This document shows, one piece after another, positions 1,658 to 15,429 of a stretch of DNA of 20,676 nt (positions are counted from its first letter, which is position 1; every line of letters begins with the position of its first letter). The position numbers and the translations under genes are program-made. The DNA lies in the UHGV virus genome UHGV-0171440; one strand, written 5' to 3'. The notes under the pieces are model-generated. The model did no database searches. It worked only from the letters and a program-made list of their open reading frames with translations, and had not been told where the DNA came from. This DNA comes from a virus.

Positions 1658-1879
1658 TTAGTTATCAAAATGTCCGTACGTTTCTTCTTCTTCAGGTGTA
1701 AGGGGGAGAATCTCGACTCTATCTATAGATACCTTTTCAATGTACCCATGAGGTCTACTTAAAATTAAAGCTCTCTCATGCCACAGAACTCCAAGAATGT
1801 GATACCTTCCAGCATCGCCTTTTACCCTGGCTCTTCCTTTGATTCTTGGCGGCATAATGCCATATTTTTTCTTTGCCAT
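1658..1879 (-). CDS. Hypothetical 73-aa protein, translationally coupled to the upstream antirepressor-like gene
   Basis: ORF whose ATG overlaps the upstream stop (TAATG); no recognisable motif; sits between the antirepressor-like gene and the tailspike. Confidence 0.55.
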   Translation of the reverse strand: MAKKKYGIMPPRIKGRARVKGDAGRYHILGVLWHERALILSRPHGYIEKVSIDRVEILPLTPEEEETYGHFDN

Positions 1880-2607
1880 TATGCAACATTACTCCCATGA
1901 ATCAGGTGTTGTAGTGCTTTAACACCTTCCGCATTGTAGCGGAATGCTTCCACCTGTTTGCTGGAATGCGCAGATTTATCCAGGAAGAACTTCCCGTACT
2001 GCTCAGTTTTGAGGTTGTTTGCGTTAGCAATGCGACCAATCTTGTTGGCCGTTACTCCAAGCTGCTCTGCAACCTCCCCTGCTGAGTAGTAGTGTTCTTC
2101 GATTGCTGGTAGAGGAATTGCATTAAAACCGACTATTGGGTTGATTATGCTTGCTGCCGCAGTCTGCTTTGCCTCAGGTGCAAGGTTAGGCATCAAGTCG
2201 AACAGGTTGGTAACTGCTTCAACTGTCATTTTCAGGGTGCGGGCCTGACGGTACTCAACAAGACCAGTTGCTGACTTCCCGTTCTTGATGTGCGCTTCCT
2301 GCATATTTTCAAGTTTATCTACCAGAGAGCGACGTACCGCCTTAGACTCACGAGCGGCCACGCGGAGCGCCTGCTTGATGGACATATCAATGATGACCAT
2401 CGAAGTTTTGTTCGCTTTTTGCACTACACTTTTTGTGTAGTGCTCCCCATCCAGTTCATCTTCAACTTTCTCGATGAATTTGTTATTGCGAACTTCCGGC
2501 TCACCGCACTGTTTGCGTGCTTCATTGACCATCGCCAGCAGAGACTGGCTATCAATAGTTTTATCCGTGACAACGGATCCGATGTTTGCTACATTCTTCA
2601 AAGTCAT
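1879..2607 (-). CDS. Phage antirepressor-family protein (about 242 aa) with a KilAC/ANT-like C-terminal domain
   Basis: Start set at the internal ATG (MTLKNVANIG...) preceded by AAGGAA-n6; C-terminal region (HYYSAGEVAEQLGVTANKIGRIANANNL...) resembles antirepressor C-terminal domains from memory. The domain assignment is not verified. Confidence 0.55.
   Translation of the reverse strand: MTLKNVANIGSVVTDKTIDSQSLLAMVNEARKQCGEPEVRNNKFIEKVEDELDGEHYTKSVVQKANKTSMVIIDMSIKQALRVAARESKAVRRSLVDKLENMQEAHIKNGKSATGLVEYRQARTLKMTVEAVTNLFDLMPNLAPEAKQTAAASIINPIVGFNAIPLPAIEEHYYSAGEVAEQLGVTANKIGRIANANNLKTEQYGKFFLDKSAHSSKQVEAFRYNAEGVKALQHLIHGSNVA
2567..2595 (+). promoter_or_regulatory. Candidate sigma70 promoter on the plus strand, antisense to the 5' end of the 242-aa antirepressor-like gene
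   Basis: -35 GTGACA (2567-2572), 17-bp spacer, extended -10 TGcTACATT (2587-2595). Confidence 0.35.
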
Positions 2608-2676
2608 TAGGCATTCCTTATGTGGTAGTAAGGGTGTGACATAGGCCGCCAGCAGCACACTGGCGGTTTTCTTTTT
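2602..2676 (+). ncRNA. Candidate cis-antisense RNA (about 75 nt) complementary to the start codon and RBS of the 242-aa antirepressor-like gene
   Basis: Bounded by the candidate promoter above and a canonical plus-strand terminator at 2646-2676; it would cover the complement of the ATG (2605-2607) and the AAGGAA Shine-Dalgarno (2613-2618). Confidence 0.3.
2646..2676 (+). terminator. Canonical intrinsic terminator on the plus strand inside a minus-strand operon
   Basis: 7-bp stem CCGCCAG/CTGGCGG with a 7-nt loop, followed by TTTTCTTTTT. No plus-strand protein gene lies upstream of it. Confidence 0.55.
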
Positions 2677-2695
2677 GCGCCGTCCGGCGCACCAA

Positions 2696-3322
2696 TCAAT
2701 GAATCCATTCCTCGCCGCGCAGTTTTGTCAGCATTGGCTGAGCGTTCTTTACGACAAAATTGTTGGTATCAAGATTCTTCATTTCACGAAGAAGTGATTT
2801 CTTGGTTTCTTCTGACATATAGCGAGTCTCATATGCAATATCGTAAATTCTTCCTGAAAGCTCAGAACCAATTTGCTTCATTCCTGGGTAGATGTGTTTG
2901 CACATTTGTTGACTCTTCTCCATCCACAATTGTAAGTAGCAGAGATTAACCAGTTCTTCGTCAGTAAACTGTTTTGCAATCGGTGAGCATTCTGCCTGCC
3001 GATCCAAAATATCCAGCACCCAGCGGCGGAACTCTTTTGCTACAGGAGTGCGAGCAAACATCGCGATTAGGTGGGCACCGCGTAGTGAGAAAACTCGCAC
3101 TTTTTTGCGATAATTTCCTGAGGTACTCACTTCGAGTACCTGAGTCATTCCGGCGCTAAACTCATCGCTATACTTGTTATAAATCATTGTTACTGCACGA
3201 CTATTTGCGTATTTAAGTGCAGATGCAATATTAGATGATGTAAACCAAACACCATGCATATCACGGGTGGGCGCCAACTCAACTCCGTGGAAGTTGTAAT
3301 CTGATTTTGCTACAATGTTCAT
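2696..3322 (-). CDS. Antirepressor (Ant-like) with a Bro-N domain, about 208 aa
   Basis: Start set at the internal ATG (MNIVAKSDYNFHG...) preceded by AAGGAA-n6; N-terminal half resembles the Bro-N antirepressor fold (…VAKEFRRWVLDIL). The longer ORF in the track runs into the arc-like gene in another frame. Confidence 0.75.
   Translation of the reverse strand: MNIVAKSDYNFHGVELAPTRDMHGVWFTSSNIASALKYANSRAVTMIYNKYSDEFSAGMTQVLEVSTSGNYRKKVRVFSLRGAHLIAMFARTPVAKEFRRWVLDILDRQAECSPIAKQFTDEELVNLCYLQLWMEKSQQMCKHIYPGMKQIGSELSGRIYDIAYETRYMSEETKKSLLREMKNLDTNNFVVKNAQPMLTKLRGEEWIH
3308..3316 (+). promoter_or_regulatory. Candidate extended -10 promoter element (TGcTACAAT) for a sar-like antisense RNA
   Basis: TGn plus TACAAT on the plus strand just inside the 5' end of the Bro-N antirepressor gene; no good -35 (TGGAAG, 3/6). 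Confidence 0.35.
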
Positions 3323-3396
3323 GTTAGTTTCCTTGCATACGGTTACTGACATAGAGGCCCGGTTTGTGTTCGCGCACTGCCGGGCTTCGCTATTTT
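3323..3396 (+). ncRNA. Candidate sar-like antisense RNA (about 70 nt) spanning the antirepressor RBS and the arc-ant intercistronic region
   Basis: Position and length mirror the P22 sar RNA as I remember it; it would cover the complement of the antirepressor RBS and end at a plus-strand hairpin (GCCCGG/CCGGGC, 3357-3385) followed by a T-rich tract. Confidence 0.4.
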
Positions 3397-3398
3397 TA
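3356..3398 (+). terminator. Plus-strand terminator-like hairpin in the arc-ant intercistronic region
   Basis: 6-7 bp GC stem with a structured 17-nt loop, then TTCGCTATTTTTAT. The T-run is displaced 8 nt from the stem, so this is a moderate call. Confidence 0.4.
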
Positions 3399-3563
3399 TG
3401 TCCTAGCATTCTTCTCTCCAATCAGTCCGTACACTTTTCTCAATTGATAAATAAGTTCCGTGTTGAACTGTCGACACTCTTTTTCTCCATTTCTTTCAAT
3501 CGCCTTCCTTACATCCTCTGGGAAACGAACCTTGCGTTGATACATGTCTTTTGCTTTTTCCAT
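3396..3563 (-). CDS. arc: Arc-like ribbon-helix-helix repressor, 55 aa (absent from the ORF track, which only lists ORFs of 60 aa or more)
   Basis: Hand translation of the minus strand gives MEKAKDMYQRKVRFPEDVRKAIERNGEKECRQFNTELIYQLRKVYGLIGEKNART; AAGGAG Shine-Dalgarno 5 nt upstream; strand-helix-helix pattern and position upstream of ant match P22 Arc. Confidence 0.65.
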   Translation of the reverse strand: MEKAKDMYQRKVRFPEDVRKAIERNGEKECRQFNTELIYQLRKVYGLIGEKNART

Positions 3564-3580
3564 CTCCACTCCTTAAATAG

Positions 3581-3593
3581 CCCCACTGTGGGG
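3581..3593. promoter_or_regulatory. Palindromic operator candidate 1 (CCCCACTGTGGGG)
   Basis: Perfect 13-bp palindrome, lying between the predicted start site of the arc-ant promoter and the arc Shine-Dalgarno. Confidence 0.5.
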
Positions 3594-3601
3594 CAGTCAA
3601 A

Positions 3602-3630
3602 ATTGTCACACCGTGCGTCATTGAAGTCAA
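3602..3630 (-). promoter_or_regulatory. Candidate promoter for arc-ant (Pant-like)
   Basis: On the minus strand: -35 TTGACT (complement of 3625-3630), 17-bp spacer, -10 GACAAT (complement of 3602-3607). Confidence 0.4.
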
Positions 3631-3649
3631 CCCCACCGTGGGGCATAAT
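3621..3649 (+). promoter_or_regulatory. Candidate promoter for the mnt-like gene (Pmnt-like), overlapping the arc-ant promoter face to face
   Basis: -35 TTGAAG (3621-3626), 17-bp spacer, -10 CATAAT (3644-3649); the two -35 hexamers overlap within the near-palindrome TTGAAGTCAA. Confidence 0.45.
3631..3643. promoter_or_regulatory. Palindromic operator candidate 2 (CCCCACCGTGGGG)
   Basis: Second perfect 13-bp palindrome, 50 bp from the first; fills the spacer of the mnt promoter and abuts the -35 of the arc-ant promoter. Confidence 0.5.
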
Positions 3650-3686
3650 TTACTTATTGTGAATTTTTCCTGTTTGGACTAATGGT

Positions 3687-4061
3687 ATGAGTAGAGAAGA
3701 CCCTCAACTTCGGATTAGGCTTCCTGTTGAATTAAAAAAAATAATTGAAGCGTCATCAAAACAAAATAATCGTTCTATGAATGCTGAGATTGTCACTCTG
3801 CTTGAGTTGGCGATTCGTGTTTGTCGTGATTTTGGGCCGGAGGATGGTCCTATCGTTCAGCAGTTTAAAGAACAACTAGATGCGATAAACAGAAAATATG
3901 ATAAAATCGAGCATGAAAAACTTATACCTCAACTTTTAGAAATCATAGAAAAACAGAAAAAACAAGTAGATAAACTTATTAGCATGGTTGAAAGATCAAT
4001 TCCTCTTTCAGAGGAATATAAGCAGAAATATCTTGGTGATGACAACAAAAAACCCACCTGA
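3687..4061 (+). CDS. mnt: Mnt-like ribbon-helix-helix repressor with a long C-terminal extension (124 aa)
   Basis: N-terminus MSREDPQLRIRLPVELKKIIE...NNRSMNAEIV aligns with P22 Mnt (MARDDPHFNFRMPMEV...NGRSMNSELL) from memory; divergent from arc-ant as in P22 immI; the C-terminal ~80 aa are K/E/Q-rich and probably coiled coil. Confidence 0.8.
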   Translation: MSREDPQLRIRLPVELKKIIEASSKQNNRSMNAEIVTLLELAIRVCRDFGPEDGPIVQQFKEQLDAINRKYDKIEHEKLIPQLLEIIEKQKKQVDKLISMVERSIPLSEEYKQKYLGDDNKKPT

Positions 4062-4079
4062 CGGTGGGTTTCATTTCTT
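4045..4079. terminator. Bidirectional intrinsic terminator between the convergent mnt-like and lipoprotein genes
   Basis: Hairpin AACCCACC-TGAC-GGTGGGTT flanked by an A-run (4047-4052) on one side and TTTCATTTCTT on the other; the mnt stop codon TGA sits in the loop. Confidence 0.6.
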
Positions 4080-4497
4080 AATCTTGCTTCGTGGAAGGTG
4101 TAAGAGATGCGTTTGCCTCTTTTGGCTTCAAGGTATACATCCCACCATTAAATGGATCAACAGCAAGCCAACCAATTAACCCACCAAACACAAGGTTTCC
4201 ACCAATATACCAACCATTAGCATTGGCTTTGATTGGCAGGGTAACTGGTTCGTACCCATCCTTTTCCATAGTGATCTGGTAGCTCTTTTTGCCAAAATAA
4301 CTACCATCTGACTTGGAAAGAGTTACTCCTTGTGGAGTTTTACCTTGCGCAACAATCACACCTGATTCATCTTTTACCTTAAAGCTCGCACCAGAAGGAT
4401 TGCTGTTCACTTGCACAAGTTGCGTTTCATCACCAACAATAGTTGCGCACCCAGATAACATGATAGCGCCAGCAACGACGCTAATAATCCTCTTCAT
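4078..4497 (-). CDS. Lipoprotein with a PEGA-like domain, about 139 aa
   Basis: Start set at MKRIISVVAGAIMLSGC (signal peptide with lipobox LSGC); mature region has PEGA-like motifs (SNPSGASFKV, GKTP, KDGYEPV) and a Gly/Trp-rich hydrophobic stretch (GWYIGGNLVFGGLIGWLAV). Domain call is from memory of the family pattern. Confidence 0.7.
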   Translation of the reverse strand: MKRIISVVAGAIMLSGCATIVGDETQLVQVNSNPSGASFKVKDESGVIVAQGKTPQGVTLSKSDGSYFGKKSYQITMEKDGYEPVTLPIKANANGWYIGGNLVFGGLIGWLAVDPFNGGMYTLKPKEANASLTPSTKQD

Positions 4498-4963
4498 ATC
4501 AATTTCCATTTCGTGAAAACCACAAACATGCTAATAGCAAAACAAAATAATGTGAAGTGCGTACATAAAAAATGTGCGTTTAATAACCACGAGCACGCAG
4601 AGAACTCGAAGAATAATCACACCAACTACACGAAAAGCTAAATACAGACATTAAATATTGTGCAATAGTTATAAATACAACATTTAGTACACACTAAAAT
4701 TATTATACATAAATATATCATTAAAATGATAATCAAGCCGGTTCACACCTCGGCTTTTTAATGTGCGGTTCGCAGAACTCCACAAGGCCACTTTCAAATA
4801 GTGGCGCACTCATTTTTGGCAGTTTTCCCAGATTGAGATTTTTCATCATATCTTGAGATACTAATGGTTTAACCGATAACACTGCACAAAAAGCACAAAC
4901 TTCCCTTTTCTTTTGCCCATAGGATCAGCCCAGTTATGGCTAATTGCTGCAATAGGAGGGCAT

Positions 4964-5860
4964 GTGATTATTGGTAATAGGGTAATGGTTGAGGATAAAG
5001 GTGGACTTACCGCCAAGGACAAAGTGAACGAAAGTTCAAATCATCCTGAATATGAATACAGGATGGTATCTTTATCCATGTCATCAAACAATGCCGCAGC
5101 AATCACCCGTCGCGATATCTCAATCCATATATTTGACGGCGAACCTTTAACCAGAGGGGGGCGCACGCATTATAAGAGCATGTTTGAAAAGGATCTTTCA
5201 GAAAACAGATATATAAAAGCCAATATTAATATGGATTCAGTATCTGATAATATCTTTTGCTTATCCGCAACTGATAGTGGAATGCTTCCAGTCCGACCAT
5301 CTCAGATTATGATATCTATACGTGAAATAAGAGGAGGTAAGTCACCAGAAACATACTGCGGCAAATTTTATTTCAATGATGAAAATGAAGAAAGAGAGTA
5401 CTCTTTTAAGAAGGGAGATAACTCACTTTTCATTTATCTAAATCTTGATTCTTCTATCTTTTCCGACATATTTAACAGCTTAAAAAATGGAGACACGACA
5501 ATTGAATTTGAGATCAACTTTCCTGCTTACGCAGACTGGCTAGATTGGATGGCGGGGGGAGGTTGGCCTACGACATATATCATCAATCCAGCACGTGATG
5601 ATGAAAACTTCATCTCCATAACGAGCATATCGACCTCCCAATCAGCTAATTGGAGAGTTGAAGATGAAGAAACTGAAGTCATTAAAAATGATGACACTTG
5701 CAATTATGAAAATGATATTGAACATAAAGATGTAAATGCATCAATCATTGCCACCAATGAACTTATATCTAACCATTCTATCCACACAAAACGGTTAACA
5801 TCTTACTTAGCAATAATCACATTTTGCTTAATAATATTAACTATTAAGGTTTGTTTCTAA
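4964..5860 (+). CDS. Hypothetical acidic, Ser/Asn-rich protein with a single C-terminal transmembrane anchor; start uncertain (TTG 4913, GTG 4964 after AGGAGG, or ATG 4985)
   Basis: Long ORF opposite to the late operon and convergent with the gp16-like gene; visibly AT-rich relative to the late genes; C-terminus LTSYLAIITFCLIILTIKVCF is a hydrophobic tail anchor; no catalytic motif recognised. Confidence 0.7.
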   Translation: MIIGNRVMVEDKGGLTAKDKVNESSNHPEYEYRMVSLSMSSNNAAAITRRDISIHIFDGEPLTRGGRTHYKSMFEKDLSENRYIKANINMDSVSDNIFCLSATDSGMLPVRPSQIMISIREIRGGKSPETYCGKFYFNDENEEREYSFKKGDNSLFIYLNLDSSIFSDIFNSLKNGDTTIEFEINFPAYADWLDWMAGGGWPTTYIINPARDDENFISITSISTSQSANWRVEDEETEVIKNDDTCNYENDIEHKDVNASIIATNELISNHSIHTKRLTSYLAIITFCLIILTIKVCF

Positions 5861-14518: not shown

Positions 14519-15429
14519 TATCGAATTCCTTTATTCAGTTGCGCCTTGAGCTTGCGATACGTCTCTACATCCCCTTTGTTTGCTGCCGCTTCCATCTGCT
14601 TTTCAATCGCAGAGATATTTGCAGCAACAGCGTGTCCCTGAATGGGTTCATCAGGTAAAGGGGCTTCTGAAACAGGCTTGGCTCGAGGCTTGAGAGTTAA
14701 ACGTTCTGACAGTCGAGTGAGTTCAATCAGCGCGGATTGCCCGTCCATCGCCAGCAACTGGCGTGTTTTCTCAGGATTAGCACCAAGGTGATACATGAGA
14801 GCAGCGGATTTCCCCGGGAAGAGGCGCATGATGTCGGCACCGACTGCTGGCGGCACCAGTTGCATGAATGCATCCTCTTTCTCCTGATAGTCAGGGATAT
14901 TGAGCTTTTCCGCTGCGTCGTAGTGCTTACGGGCTGCCTCGACGTATTGCGCTGATTGCTGGGTGAACTCCTGAGTTTTTCGCCCCTGCTCGGCGACAGC
15001 CTGGCTTCGTGCGTCCATAGCCTTGATCTGCCATTCACTGTTTGCCTGCTGGAAGGCAGCCAGTGCGCGGCTCTGGTCATAGTCGTACTTAGCCAGTGCG
15101 TCTTCGGAAAGATAATCGTTAGGGTCTGGTTGTTTTGGTAACTCAGGGTTCACCCGCAGGTGCTCCGGCAACTCTCCACGCTTAACCGCTTCCATCTGCT
15201 GCTCAAGCTCACGCTGGCGTTTGCGTTCGATGCGGCGACGGGCAAATTCAGCATTAGTTGCCGGGTCTTGTTTTGGTTTCTCATCGTCTTTCAGGACAAT
15301 CTCGAAGCCTTCTTCCTGGCCTGCGTTGTCGTTGGCATTATCGACAACTAAGCCATCAGCAGATGCCGCTGCATGATTGCCGGGCAGGGTTAATTCTTCA
15401 GAAGCCTGAATGTCGGTGGTTTGTTCCAT
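14518..15429 (-). CDS. 8: Scaffolding protein, gp8-like, 303 aa
   Basis: Resembles P22 scaffold throughout; same length; stop overlaps the coat start (TAATG). Confidence 0.95.

Follow-up and report, generated by a model that had tools for sequence, protein, structure and literature searches.

The window analysed here is the whole 20,676-nucleotide stretch of UHGV virus genome UHGV-0171440. It comprises the late region of a P22-like prophage, as judged from PHROG matches and from gene order: terminase, portal, head protein, ejection and DNA-transfer proteins and the N-terminal domain of a tailspike are encoded in the order known from P22. Between the gene-16-type DNA-transfer gene and the tailspike gene, the position of the 'ant moron' of P22-like late operons (a concept set out in PMC2629481), open reading frames (ORFs) and their Pfam and PHROG matches revealed a ribbon-helix-helix (RHH) gene of the Mnt family, here mnt-like, divergent from an operon of an arc-like gene and the antirepressor gene ant. 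P22 carries its immI region at the same genome position, from DNA-transfer gene to tailspike gene. A preliminary description of the intergenic region had found in it the logic of P22 immI, built on two palindromic operators and two divergent promoters (Pant for the arc-like/ant operon, Pmnt for mnt-like). The module is indeed of the immI type and its palindromes lie where operators would be expected, but the promoter and operator logic is not a copy of that of P22: the two outer palindromes are the first and third members, O1 and O3, of a three-member array.

Both perfect 13-bp palindromes were present as described, CCCCACTGTGGGG at 3581–3593 (palindrome 1) and CCCCACCGTGGGG at 3631–3643 (palindrome 2), 50 bp apart from start to start; the first is perfect over 15 bp, as GCCCCACTGTGGGGC. 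Neither 13-mer had a further match in the 20.7-kb window, even at 2 mismatches (chance expectation 0.44). Both palindromes are real, but a middle core, CACCGTG at 3609–3615, had been overlooked, and the array has three sites, with CAC-N-GTG cores centred at 3587, 3612 and 3637, in 25-bp steps. Three such cores within 60 bp were seen in 0/2000 shuffles of the window. Each operator consists of two 8-bp half-sites, with CAC-N-GTG the most strongly conserved part. When the window was searched with TGNCNCACNGTGNGNCA at up to 2 mismatches, O1, O2 and O3 were the sole matches, and no further operator copies above chance were found in the window. Read outward, the left and right half-sites are GTGGGGCT and GTGGGGCA in O1, GTGTGACA and GTGCGTCA in O2, and GTGGGGTT and GTGGGGCA in O3. 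GTGNG is present in 6/6 of them and GTGNGNCA in 5/6, the exception being the inner half of O3 (GTGGGGTT), which touches the -35 hexamer of Pant. Coordinates of these and the other features of the module are collected in Table 1.

Table 1. Operators, predicted promoters, genes and RNA features of the module (window coordinates).
Feature	Coordinates	Strand	Details
O1, 17-bp Mnt-type operator AGCCCCACTGTGGGGCA	3579–3595	.	contains palindrome 1; begins 6 bp downstream of Pant -10
O2, middle operator TGTCACACCGTGCGTCA	3604–3620	.	in Pant spacer; 0 mismatches to TGNCNCACNGTGNGNCA; identical in 64/73 distinct relatives
O3, operator AACCCCACCGTGGGGCA	3629–3645	.	contains palindrome 2; in Pmnt spacer
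Predicted Pant (arc-like/ant)	3602–3630	-	-35 TTGACT 3630–3625; 17-bp spacer; TG-extended -10 GACAAT 3607–3602; start ~3595
Predicted Pmnt	3621–3649	+	-35 TTGAAG 3621–3626; 17-bp spacer; -10 CATAAT 3644–3649; start ~3656
mnt-like, 124 aa	3687–4061	+	N-terminal RHH domain (strand PQLRIRLP), then long C-terminal helix
arc-like, 55 aa	3396–3563	-	strand MYQRKVRFP; first gene of Pant operon
ant, antirepressor, 208 aa	2696–3322	-	Bro-N and P22_AR_C domains; phrog_245, 9e-54
Second antirepressor-family gene, downstream of ant	1879–2607	-	phrog_1726, 6e-99; same orientation as ant
Predicted sar-like antisense RNA	3308–3397	+	TG-extended -10 TGCTACAAT (3308–3316) in first ant codons; start ~3323
Bidirectional terminator hairpin	4049–4072	.	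ends mnt-like and convergent lipoprotein gene; left arm encodes C-terminal KKPT

The array is interleaved with two divergent promoters, which were predicted by scanning for consensus elements, the start sites likewise being predicted rather than mapped. The scan returned exactly the two promoters that had been claimed, and their arrangement bore out the preliminary description in detail: the two -35 hexamers overlap face to face and share TTGAAGTCAA (3621–3630), palindrome 2 fills 13 of the 17 bases of the predicted Pmnt spacer and lies at the Pant -35, and palindrome 1 is found at the predicted Pant start, 8 bp past the Pant -10 (6 bp for the 17-bp O1, which includes a two-base flank). The scan was no richer in promoters than shuffled sequence (2 found, 2.0 expected), and the assignment is supported not by the scan but by conservation of the hexamers in relatives, the Pant elements being ~100% conserved and the Pmnt CATAAT invariant (59 distinct upstream sequences). 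Neighbouring spacer DNA, including the stretch from O1 to the Pant -10, was only 30–40% conserved. Operators and promoter elements share bases at several points. The left end of O2 overlaps both the extended -10 and the -10 of Pant, and GACAAT, an odd -10 hexamer, includes operator positions +5 to +8 of O2. O3 ends in CA, and this dinucleotide also opens the Pmnt -10 hexamer CATAAT; on its left, O3 touches the Pant -35. Just downstream of the Pmnt -10, a block at 3650–3670 (TTTACTTATTGTGAATTTTT) was 70–98% conserved among Enterobacteriaceae relatives, above other non-operator spacers; it may belong to an mRNA leader or bind another protein.

The Mnt-like and Arc-like proteins served as queries for relatives, yielding 106 and 80 loci, respectively, and conservation was scored over the 73 distinct upstream sequences that adjoin Mnt-like proteins with the strand QLR[IV]RLP. 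A three-site chain was present in 72/73, the single exception lacking the whole arc side, with O2 and O3 spaced 25 bp apart in 71 and O1 and O2 spaced 24–27 bp apart. Within each of the six half-sites, positions +1 to +3 and +5 hardly varied at all, +5 being G in 100%. O3 was a perfect CCCCAC-N-GTGGGG in 69/73, its central base being free (C, G, A or T); perfect forms of O1 were few (9/73), imperfect ones such as CCCCACCGTGAGG being the rule. Both outer sites were perfect in 8/73, so that the 'twin perfect palindromes' of the window represent a conserved triplet in one of its less frequent states. Phage TL-2011b (L001 4290–4400) and one viral contig (L156) carry mnt-like with a frameshift and with the operators all intact; these are recent inactivations, since near-identical contigs keep the gene whole. 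The O3 of TL-2011b is degenerate in sequence; decay of O3 following loss of Mnt was considered and rejected, as two viral contigs with an identical intergenic region have mnt-like intact.

The product of mnt-like is a bona fide RHH protein of the Arc/Mnt family. It matched Pfam Arc (PF03869) with 30.6 bits, against a curated cut-off of 20.4, and its best solved relative was P22 Mnt (1MNT, E 0.0016, residues 3–43). In its AlphaFold2 (AF2) model, residues 1–13 are extended and the two RHH helices (14–26 and 31–49; predicted local confidence, pLDDT, 86–91) are followed by a 50-residue helix (55–104); the top fold matches were Arc, AmrZ and CopG (root-mean-square deviation ~1.2 Å over 38 residues, probability 0.99, E 0.16–0.5). 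Beyond residue 43 there was no sequence similarity to P22 Mnt, and the C-terminal domains of the two proteins are unrelated in sequence. Mnt proper is a tetramer, held together by a C-terminal coiled coil, and one tetramer binds each 17-bp operator. The Arc-like protein is more divergent: it scored 19.2 bits with Pfam Arc, below the 20.4 cut-off, and was recognised through PHROG 228, 'Arc-like repressor' (1.3e-5), through hhalign to P22 Arc (P 1.4e-4), and by transitive BLAST, with an Arc-family protein from Salmonella as intermediate (49% identity to the Arc-like protein, 39% to P22 Arc). Its monomer model (pLDDT 66, two helices) had no fold match in the PDB; the Arc-like beta-strand forms only in the dimer. 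Direct PDB sequence matches of the Arc-like protein (designed proteins, a primase) were taken as spurious.

Among relatives, the RHH domain of class A, together with its operator cassette, was joined to C-terminal domains of at least four unrelated kinds, 77–168 aa in length (window 3687–4061; P0121–P0240), and the C-terminal domain of the window protein was also found behind a different DNA-reading strand (P0138, P0144). Many Mnt-like proteins end in KKPT, encoded by the left arm of a shared terminator of the 4049–4072 type, and this terminator looks like a recombination joint; the end of P22 mnt is similar to the terminator end of the mnt-like gene. RefSeq labels P22-type Mnt 'partition protein ATPase' (P22 NC_002371, L003 14519–14770; other Lederbergvirus records), evidently an annotation error, which has spread to the PHROG descriptions phrog_795 and phrog_2685.

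Related loci indicate which protein reads the sites: site flanks varied together with the DNA-reading beta-strand of the Mnt-like protein, all three sites alike. Loci with the strand QLRVRIP (Serratia, Xenorhabdus) had three CTCAC-N-GTGAG sites, those with QLK[IVL]RLP (Acinetobacter and three more lineages of proteobacteria: Pseudorhodoferax, Giesbergeria and a Xanthobacteraceae metagenome-assembled genome) three ACCAC-N-GTGGT(CC) sites, and the Citrobacter locus, whose Mnt-like protein has the strand DKFTVRFP in front of the same C-terminal domain as the window protein, three sites of the type AGTCAA-N-TTGACT. A single site, AGACCAC-G-GTGGTCT, containing GACCAC, accompanied QFNLRLP in ST160 and Gally; QINIRIS (Kapi1 and a Klebsiella phage) accompanied TGGTATAAC-C-GTTATACCA, and HFNFRMP, the strand of P22, GTCCAC. 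Lys in place of Arg in the Mnt-like strand went with GTGGT half-sites, and a prediction set beforehand held for a Salmonella locus with the strand QMKIRLP, which has three operators with GGTCC-type half-sites and T at +5 in 5/6 of these. Two further observations bear on the Arc-like protein. In the QLRVRIP lineage the first gene of the antirepressor operon had no RHH match in Pfam or PHROGs, and the three sites are kept; at the Salmonella locus the Arc-like strand is QRK.RFP, as in the window, yet the sites differ. Because the array persists in a lineage with no detectable Arc homologue, and because its sequence differs at the Salmonella locus under the same Arc-like strand, we infer from these comparative data, drawn from few lineages, that the array belongs to the Mnt-like protein.

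It is probable, on this evidence, that O1, O2 and O3 are all recognised by the Mnt-like RHH repressor, which would thereby lock the antirepressor operon and limit its own synthesis. Site sequences, positions, conservation and co-variation are the observations from which binding, promoter assignments, the sign of regulation and oligomeric state are inferred. The repressor would bind each operator, probably as two dimers per site, like P22 Mnt. Bound at O1 it would cover the start of the arc-like/ant transcript (~+1 to +17), and at O2 it would block the Pant spacer and -10, and occupancy of both would shut off antirepressor synthesis in the lysogen, leaving Pant double-locked. O3, in the Pmnt spacer and overlapping the -10, would let the repressor limit its own synthesis, negative autoregulation being the prediction for a Pmnt with its own operator. 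Full occupancy of the array would coat both Pant and Pmnt.

Several points weigh against this reading. The co-variation rests on approximately 5–7 lineages, whose members are not independent, and the sample is biased by a locus search that was seeded with the peptide MSREDPQL. The DNA-facing strand triads of the Arc-like and the Mnt-like protein nearly match within a lineage; the Arc-like protein could therefore bind these sites too, in which case the co-variation would not fully tell the two apart. The variable O1–O2 spacing of 24–27 bp argues against rigid phasing of the array. Should O3 bind most strongly, autorepression would hold the repressor at a concentration too low to fill O1 and O2, unless binding were cooperative. 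O2 is unlike O1 and O3 at +4 and +6, lies where P22 has its Arc operator (Oarc), and may belong to the Arc-like protein. Finally, a literature search yielded no phage paper with these operator sequences and none that describes a three-site Mnt array.

The Arc-like protein could thus have O2 as its target, or could share all three sites with the Mnt-like protein. An assignment in which the Mnt-like protein binds O1 and O3, and O2 serves mainly as operator of the Arc-like protein, giving it feedback on Pant, is a possibility that we hold to be rather unlikely. It draws on the location of O2 in the Pant spacer, 25 bp from O1, which is the place of P22 Oarc, 28 bp from the P22 Mnt operator (Omnt), and on the fact that O2 departs from GTGGGGCA at +4 and +6 (GTGTGACA and GTGCGTCA) and is nevertheless near-invariant (64/73); moreover, the distinctness of O2 is confined to lineages in which the Arc-like protein and the Mnt-like protein have different strands, and is not seen in the lineage that lacks an Arc homologue, a correlation that itself involves few independent lineages. 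Against it, none of the positions invariant in O1 and O3 (+1 to +3, +5, +7 and +8) is changed in O2, its left half is constrained by the extended -10 of Pant, which could alone account for the odd +4 and +6, and its right half reverts to GTGAGGCA or GTGGGGCA in a few relatives. A comparable, small chance is given to a design in which one set of three operators is read by both the Arc-like and the Mnt-like protein, as competing paralogues that differ in oligomeric state and time of expression, the two-operator layout of P22 being derived from an ancestral three-site arrangement. The DNA-facing triads of the two proteins are QKR and QRR in this window; between lineages the triads vary widely, and within lineages they are alike (Arc-like/Mnt-like QKR/QKR, KTR/KTR, QNR/QNR and QRR/QRR; L015, L021, L196, L199, L113/L114, L001). 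The triads of P22 are also similar (QNR/HNR) despite different operators, which calls for caution in concluding from them that operators are shared.

In the preliminary description the two palindromes were divided between the repressors, one serving the Mnt-like and the other the Arc-like protein, as in P22 immI with new sequences. This division fits the presence of two RHH genes flanking the region and of a palindrome at each of the two promoters, but the palindromes share all 12 specified bases and cannot discriminate between two proteins, a third site is present, all sites co-vary with the Mnt-like strand and the array survives where no Arc homologue is detectable; a pair of near-identical palindromes for an Arc/Mnt repressor pair is accordingly very improbable. 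Least probable of all are two other roles for the palindromes: as RNA or DNA hairpins, which might terminate transcription or stabilise the arc-like/ant mRNA at its 5′ end, and as targets of some different factor, for instance LexA or the main repressor of the prophage. O1 does span ~+1 to +17 of the transcript from Pant, where a stem of 5–6 bp could form, but O1 is imperfect in 64/73 relatives, and a hairpin there is thus not conserved; O2 and O3 lie in promoter spacers, untranscribed from the predicted starts, neither palindrome is followed by a T-run, and co-variation with the adjacent RHH gene would not be expected for a host factor. The sequence was inspected for a LexA box (CTGT-N8-ACAG) and for a main-repressor site, and contained no such pattern.

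Recognition of the whole array by the Mnt-like repressor, which we prefer, would set the locus apart from P22 in several respects. The operators had been described as not those of P22. This holds at the level of specificity class, but they are close variants of Omnt rather than unrelated sequences: in the annotated P22 record Omnt is AGGTCCACGGTGGACCT (AGGTCCAC-N-GTGGACCT) and starts 6 bp past the Pant -10, and O1 has both its CCAC-N-GTGG core and the same 6-bp offset. Alignment with the P22 operators, proposed as a check, thus showed CCAC-N-GTGG in common with Omnt, and nothing in the region resembled P22 Oarc (ATGATAGAAGCACTCTACTAT, 21 bp with TAGA boxes); the Pant spacer contains the Mnt-type O2 instead. 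P22 has one Omnt and one distinct Oarc in the shared spacer, in contrast to three homotypic Mnt-type sites here. O1 is the positional equivalent of Omnt, and O2 that of Oarc (centres 28 bp apart in P22, 24–27 bp here), and O3 has no P22 counterpart and shifts Pmnt outward by one 25-bp unit. The half-site is GTGGACCT in P22 and GTGNGNCA here, and the Mnt-like strand HFNFR in P22 and QLRIR here. The P22 promoters overlap fully, each -10 lying opposite the other's -35 (Pant 14793–14821, Pmnt 14826–14798), which lets a single Arc site block the pair, with starts ~37 bp apart, whereas the predicted promoters of the window overlap only in their -35 hexamers and have predicted starts ~61 bp apart. 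The Pmnt of P22 is without a Mnt operator, in contrast to the presence of O3 in the Pmnt spacer here, and P22 Mnt is said, in work by Sauer and Susskind, to stimulate Pmnt indirectly.

In design, the array is as close to the three-operator OR of lambdoid immC as to P22 immI. As in OR of lambda and P22 (OR1–OR3), one repressor would act on three graded sites between divergent promoters, one of them self-limiting; the OR repressors, however, are helix-turn-helix proteins acting at adjacent sites, unlike the predicted beta-sheet recognition by an RHH protein at 25-bp spacing. Nothing in the present array points to positive autoregulation or to pairwise cooperativity. The omega repressor of pSM19035 binds as RHH dimers to 7-bp units, in contiguous heptad arrays of 7–10 units. 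Inverted repeat units are common to both systems, but the present array comprises three discrete palindromes and its presumed reader carries a helical domain at the C-terminus. AmrZ of Pseudomonas aeruginosa, an Arc/Mnt-family RHH protein with a C-terminal oligomerisation domain that represses itself through sites in its own promoter (PMC3325190), is comparable in domain order (RHH, then a C-terminal domain), in autorepression (predicted here) and as one of the top fold matches, but it is a chromosomal global regulator outside any antirepressor module, with unrelated operators.

The remainder of the module may also share the layout of immI. In P22, the sar promoter lies within the first codons of ant, and sar terminates over the stop codon of arc; the predicted sar-like antisense RNA of the window would be placed alike: a terminator hairpin at 3354–3388 with a U-run lies over the arc-like stop codon (minimum free energy -33.2 kcal/mol, z -5.3), and per-sequence folding found the hairpin kept, with different stem sequences, in 34/43 distinct relatives. 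An Rfam search over 2500–4700 gave no family at threshold, the only match being a sub-threshold one to SymR over the sar-like region. The Pant operon may supply two antirepressors, ant and the product of the 1879–2607 gene. A 315-aa ORF with a C-terminal hydrophobic segment (4913–5860, + strand) occupies the place of P22 sieA and had no match in Pfam, PHROGs or PADLOC, and a 143-aa ORF (4078–4509, - strand), a member of phrog_6823, gave a sub-threshold match to a PEGA domain (17.6 bits, cut-off 20.8); both are candidate superinfection-exclusion morons. A defence-system scan of the ORFs neighbouring the module found none.

P22 immI is a textbook case for RHH repressors. The array presented here is a variation on the immI switch of P22, common yet so far undescribed, and does not amount to a system of a new kind. 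The class was found in just 1 (TL-2011b) of 50,697 phage records and is abundant in prophages, with single protein clusters of the module present on hundreds of contigs from Klebsiella, Enterobacter and Yersinia pestis. A copy of the mnt-like/arc-like/operator module 99.3% identical to that of the window was detected between tail genes L and C40 peptidase in a lambdoid siphovirus prophage (L002, E. coli CFSAN018748, NZ_CP028192, 5014–6672; a further siphovirus-type copy is in NZ_CP062871), indicating that the module moves as a moron between virion types, podovirus and siphovirus. According to the epsilon34 genome paper (PMC2629481), the P22 ant moron is the only version to have been studied by experiment. 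The module considered here is much commoner in sequence databases than P22 immI. If the array is read as proposed, these prophages would control their antirepressors through a different circuit, with an autorepressed Mnt and a double-locked Pant. Strand and operator variants that are paired in nature, such as R at strand position -4 with +5 G or K with +5 T, would constitute a ready data set for the RHH recognition code, and the specificity classes would predict which co-resident prophages cross-repress each other's antirepressors and which fail to do so.

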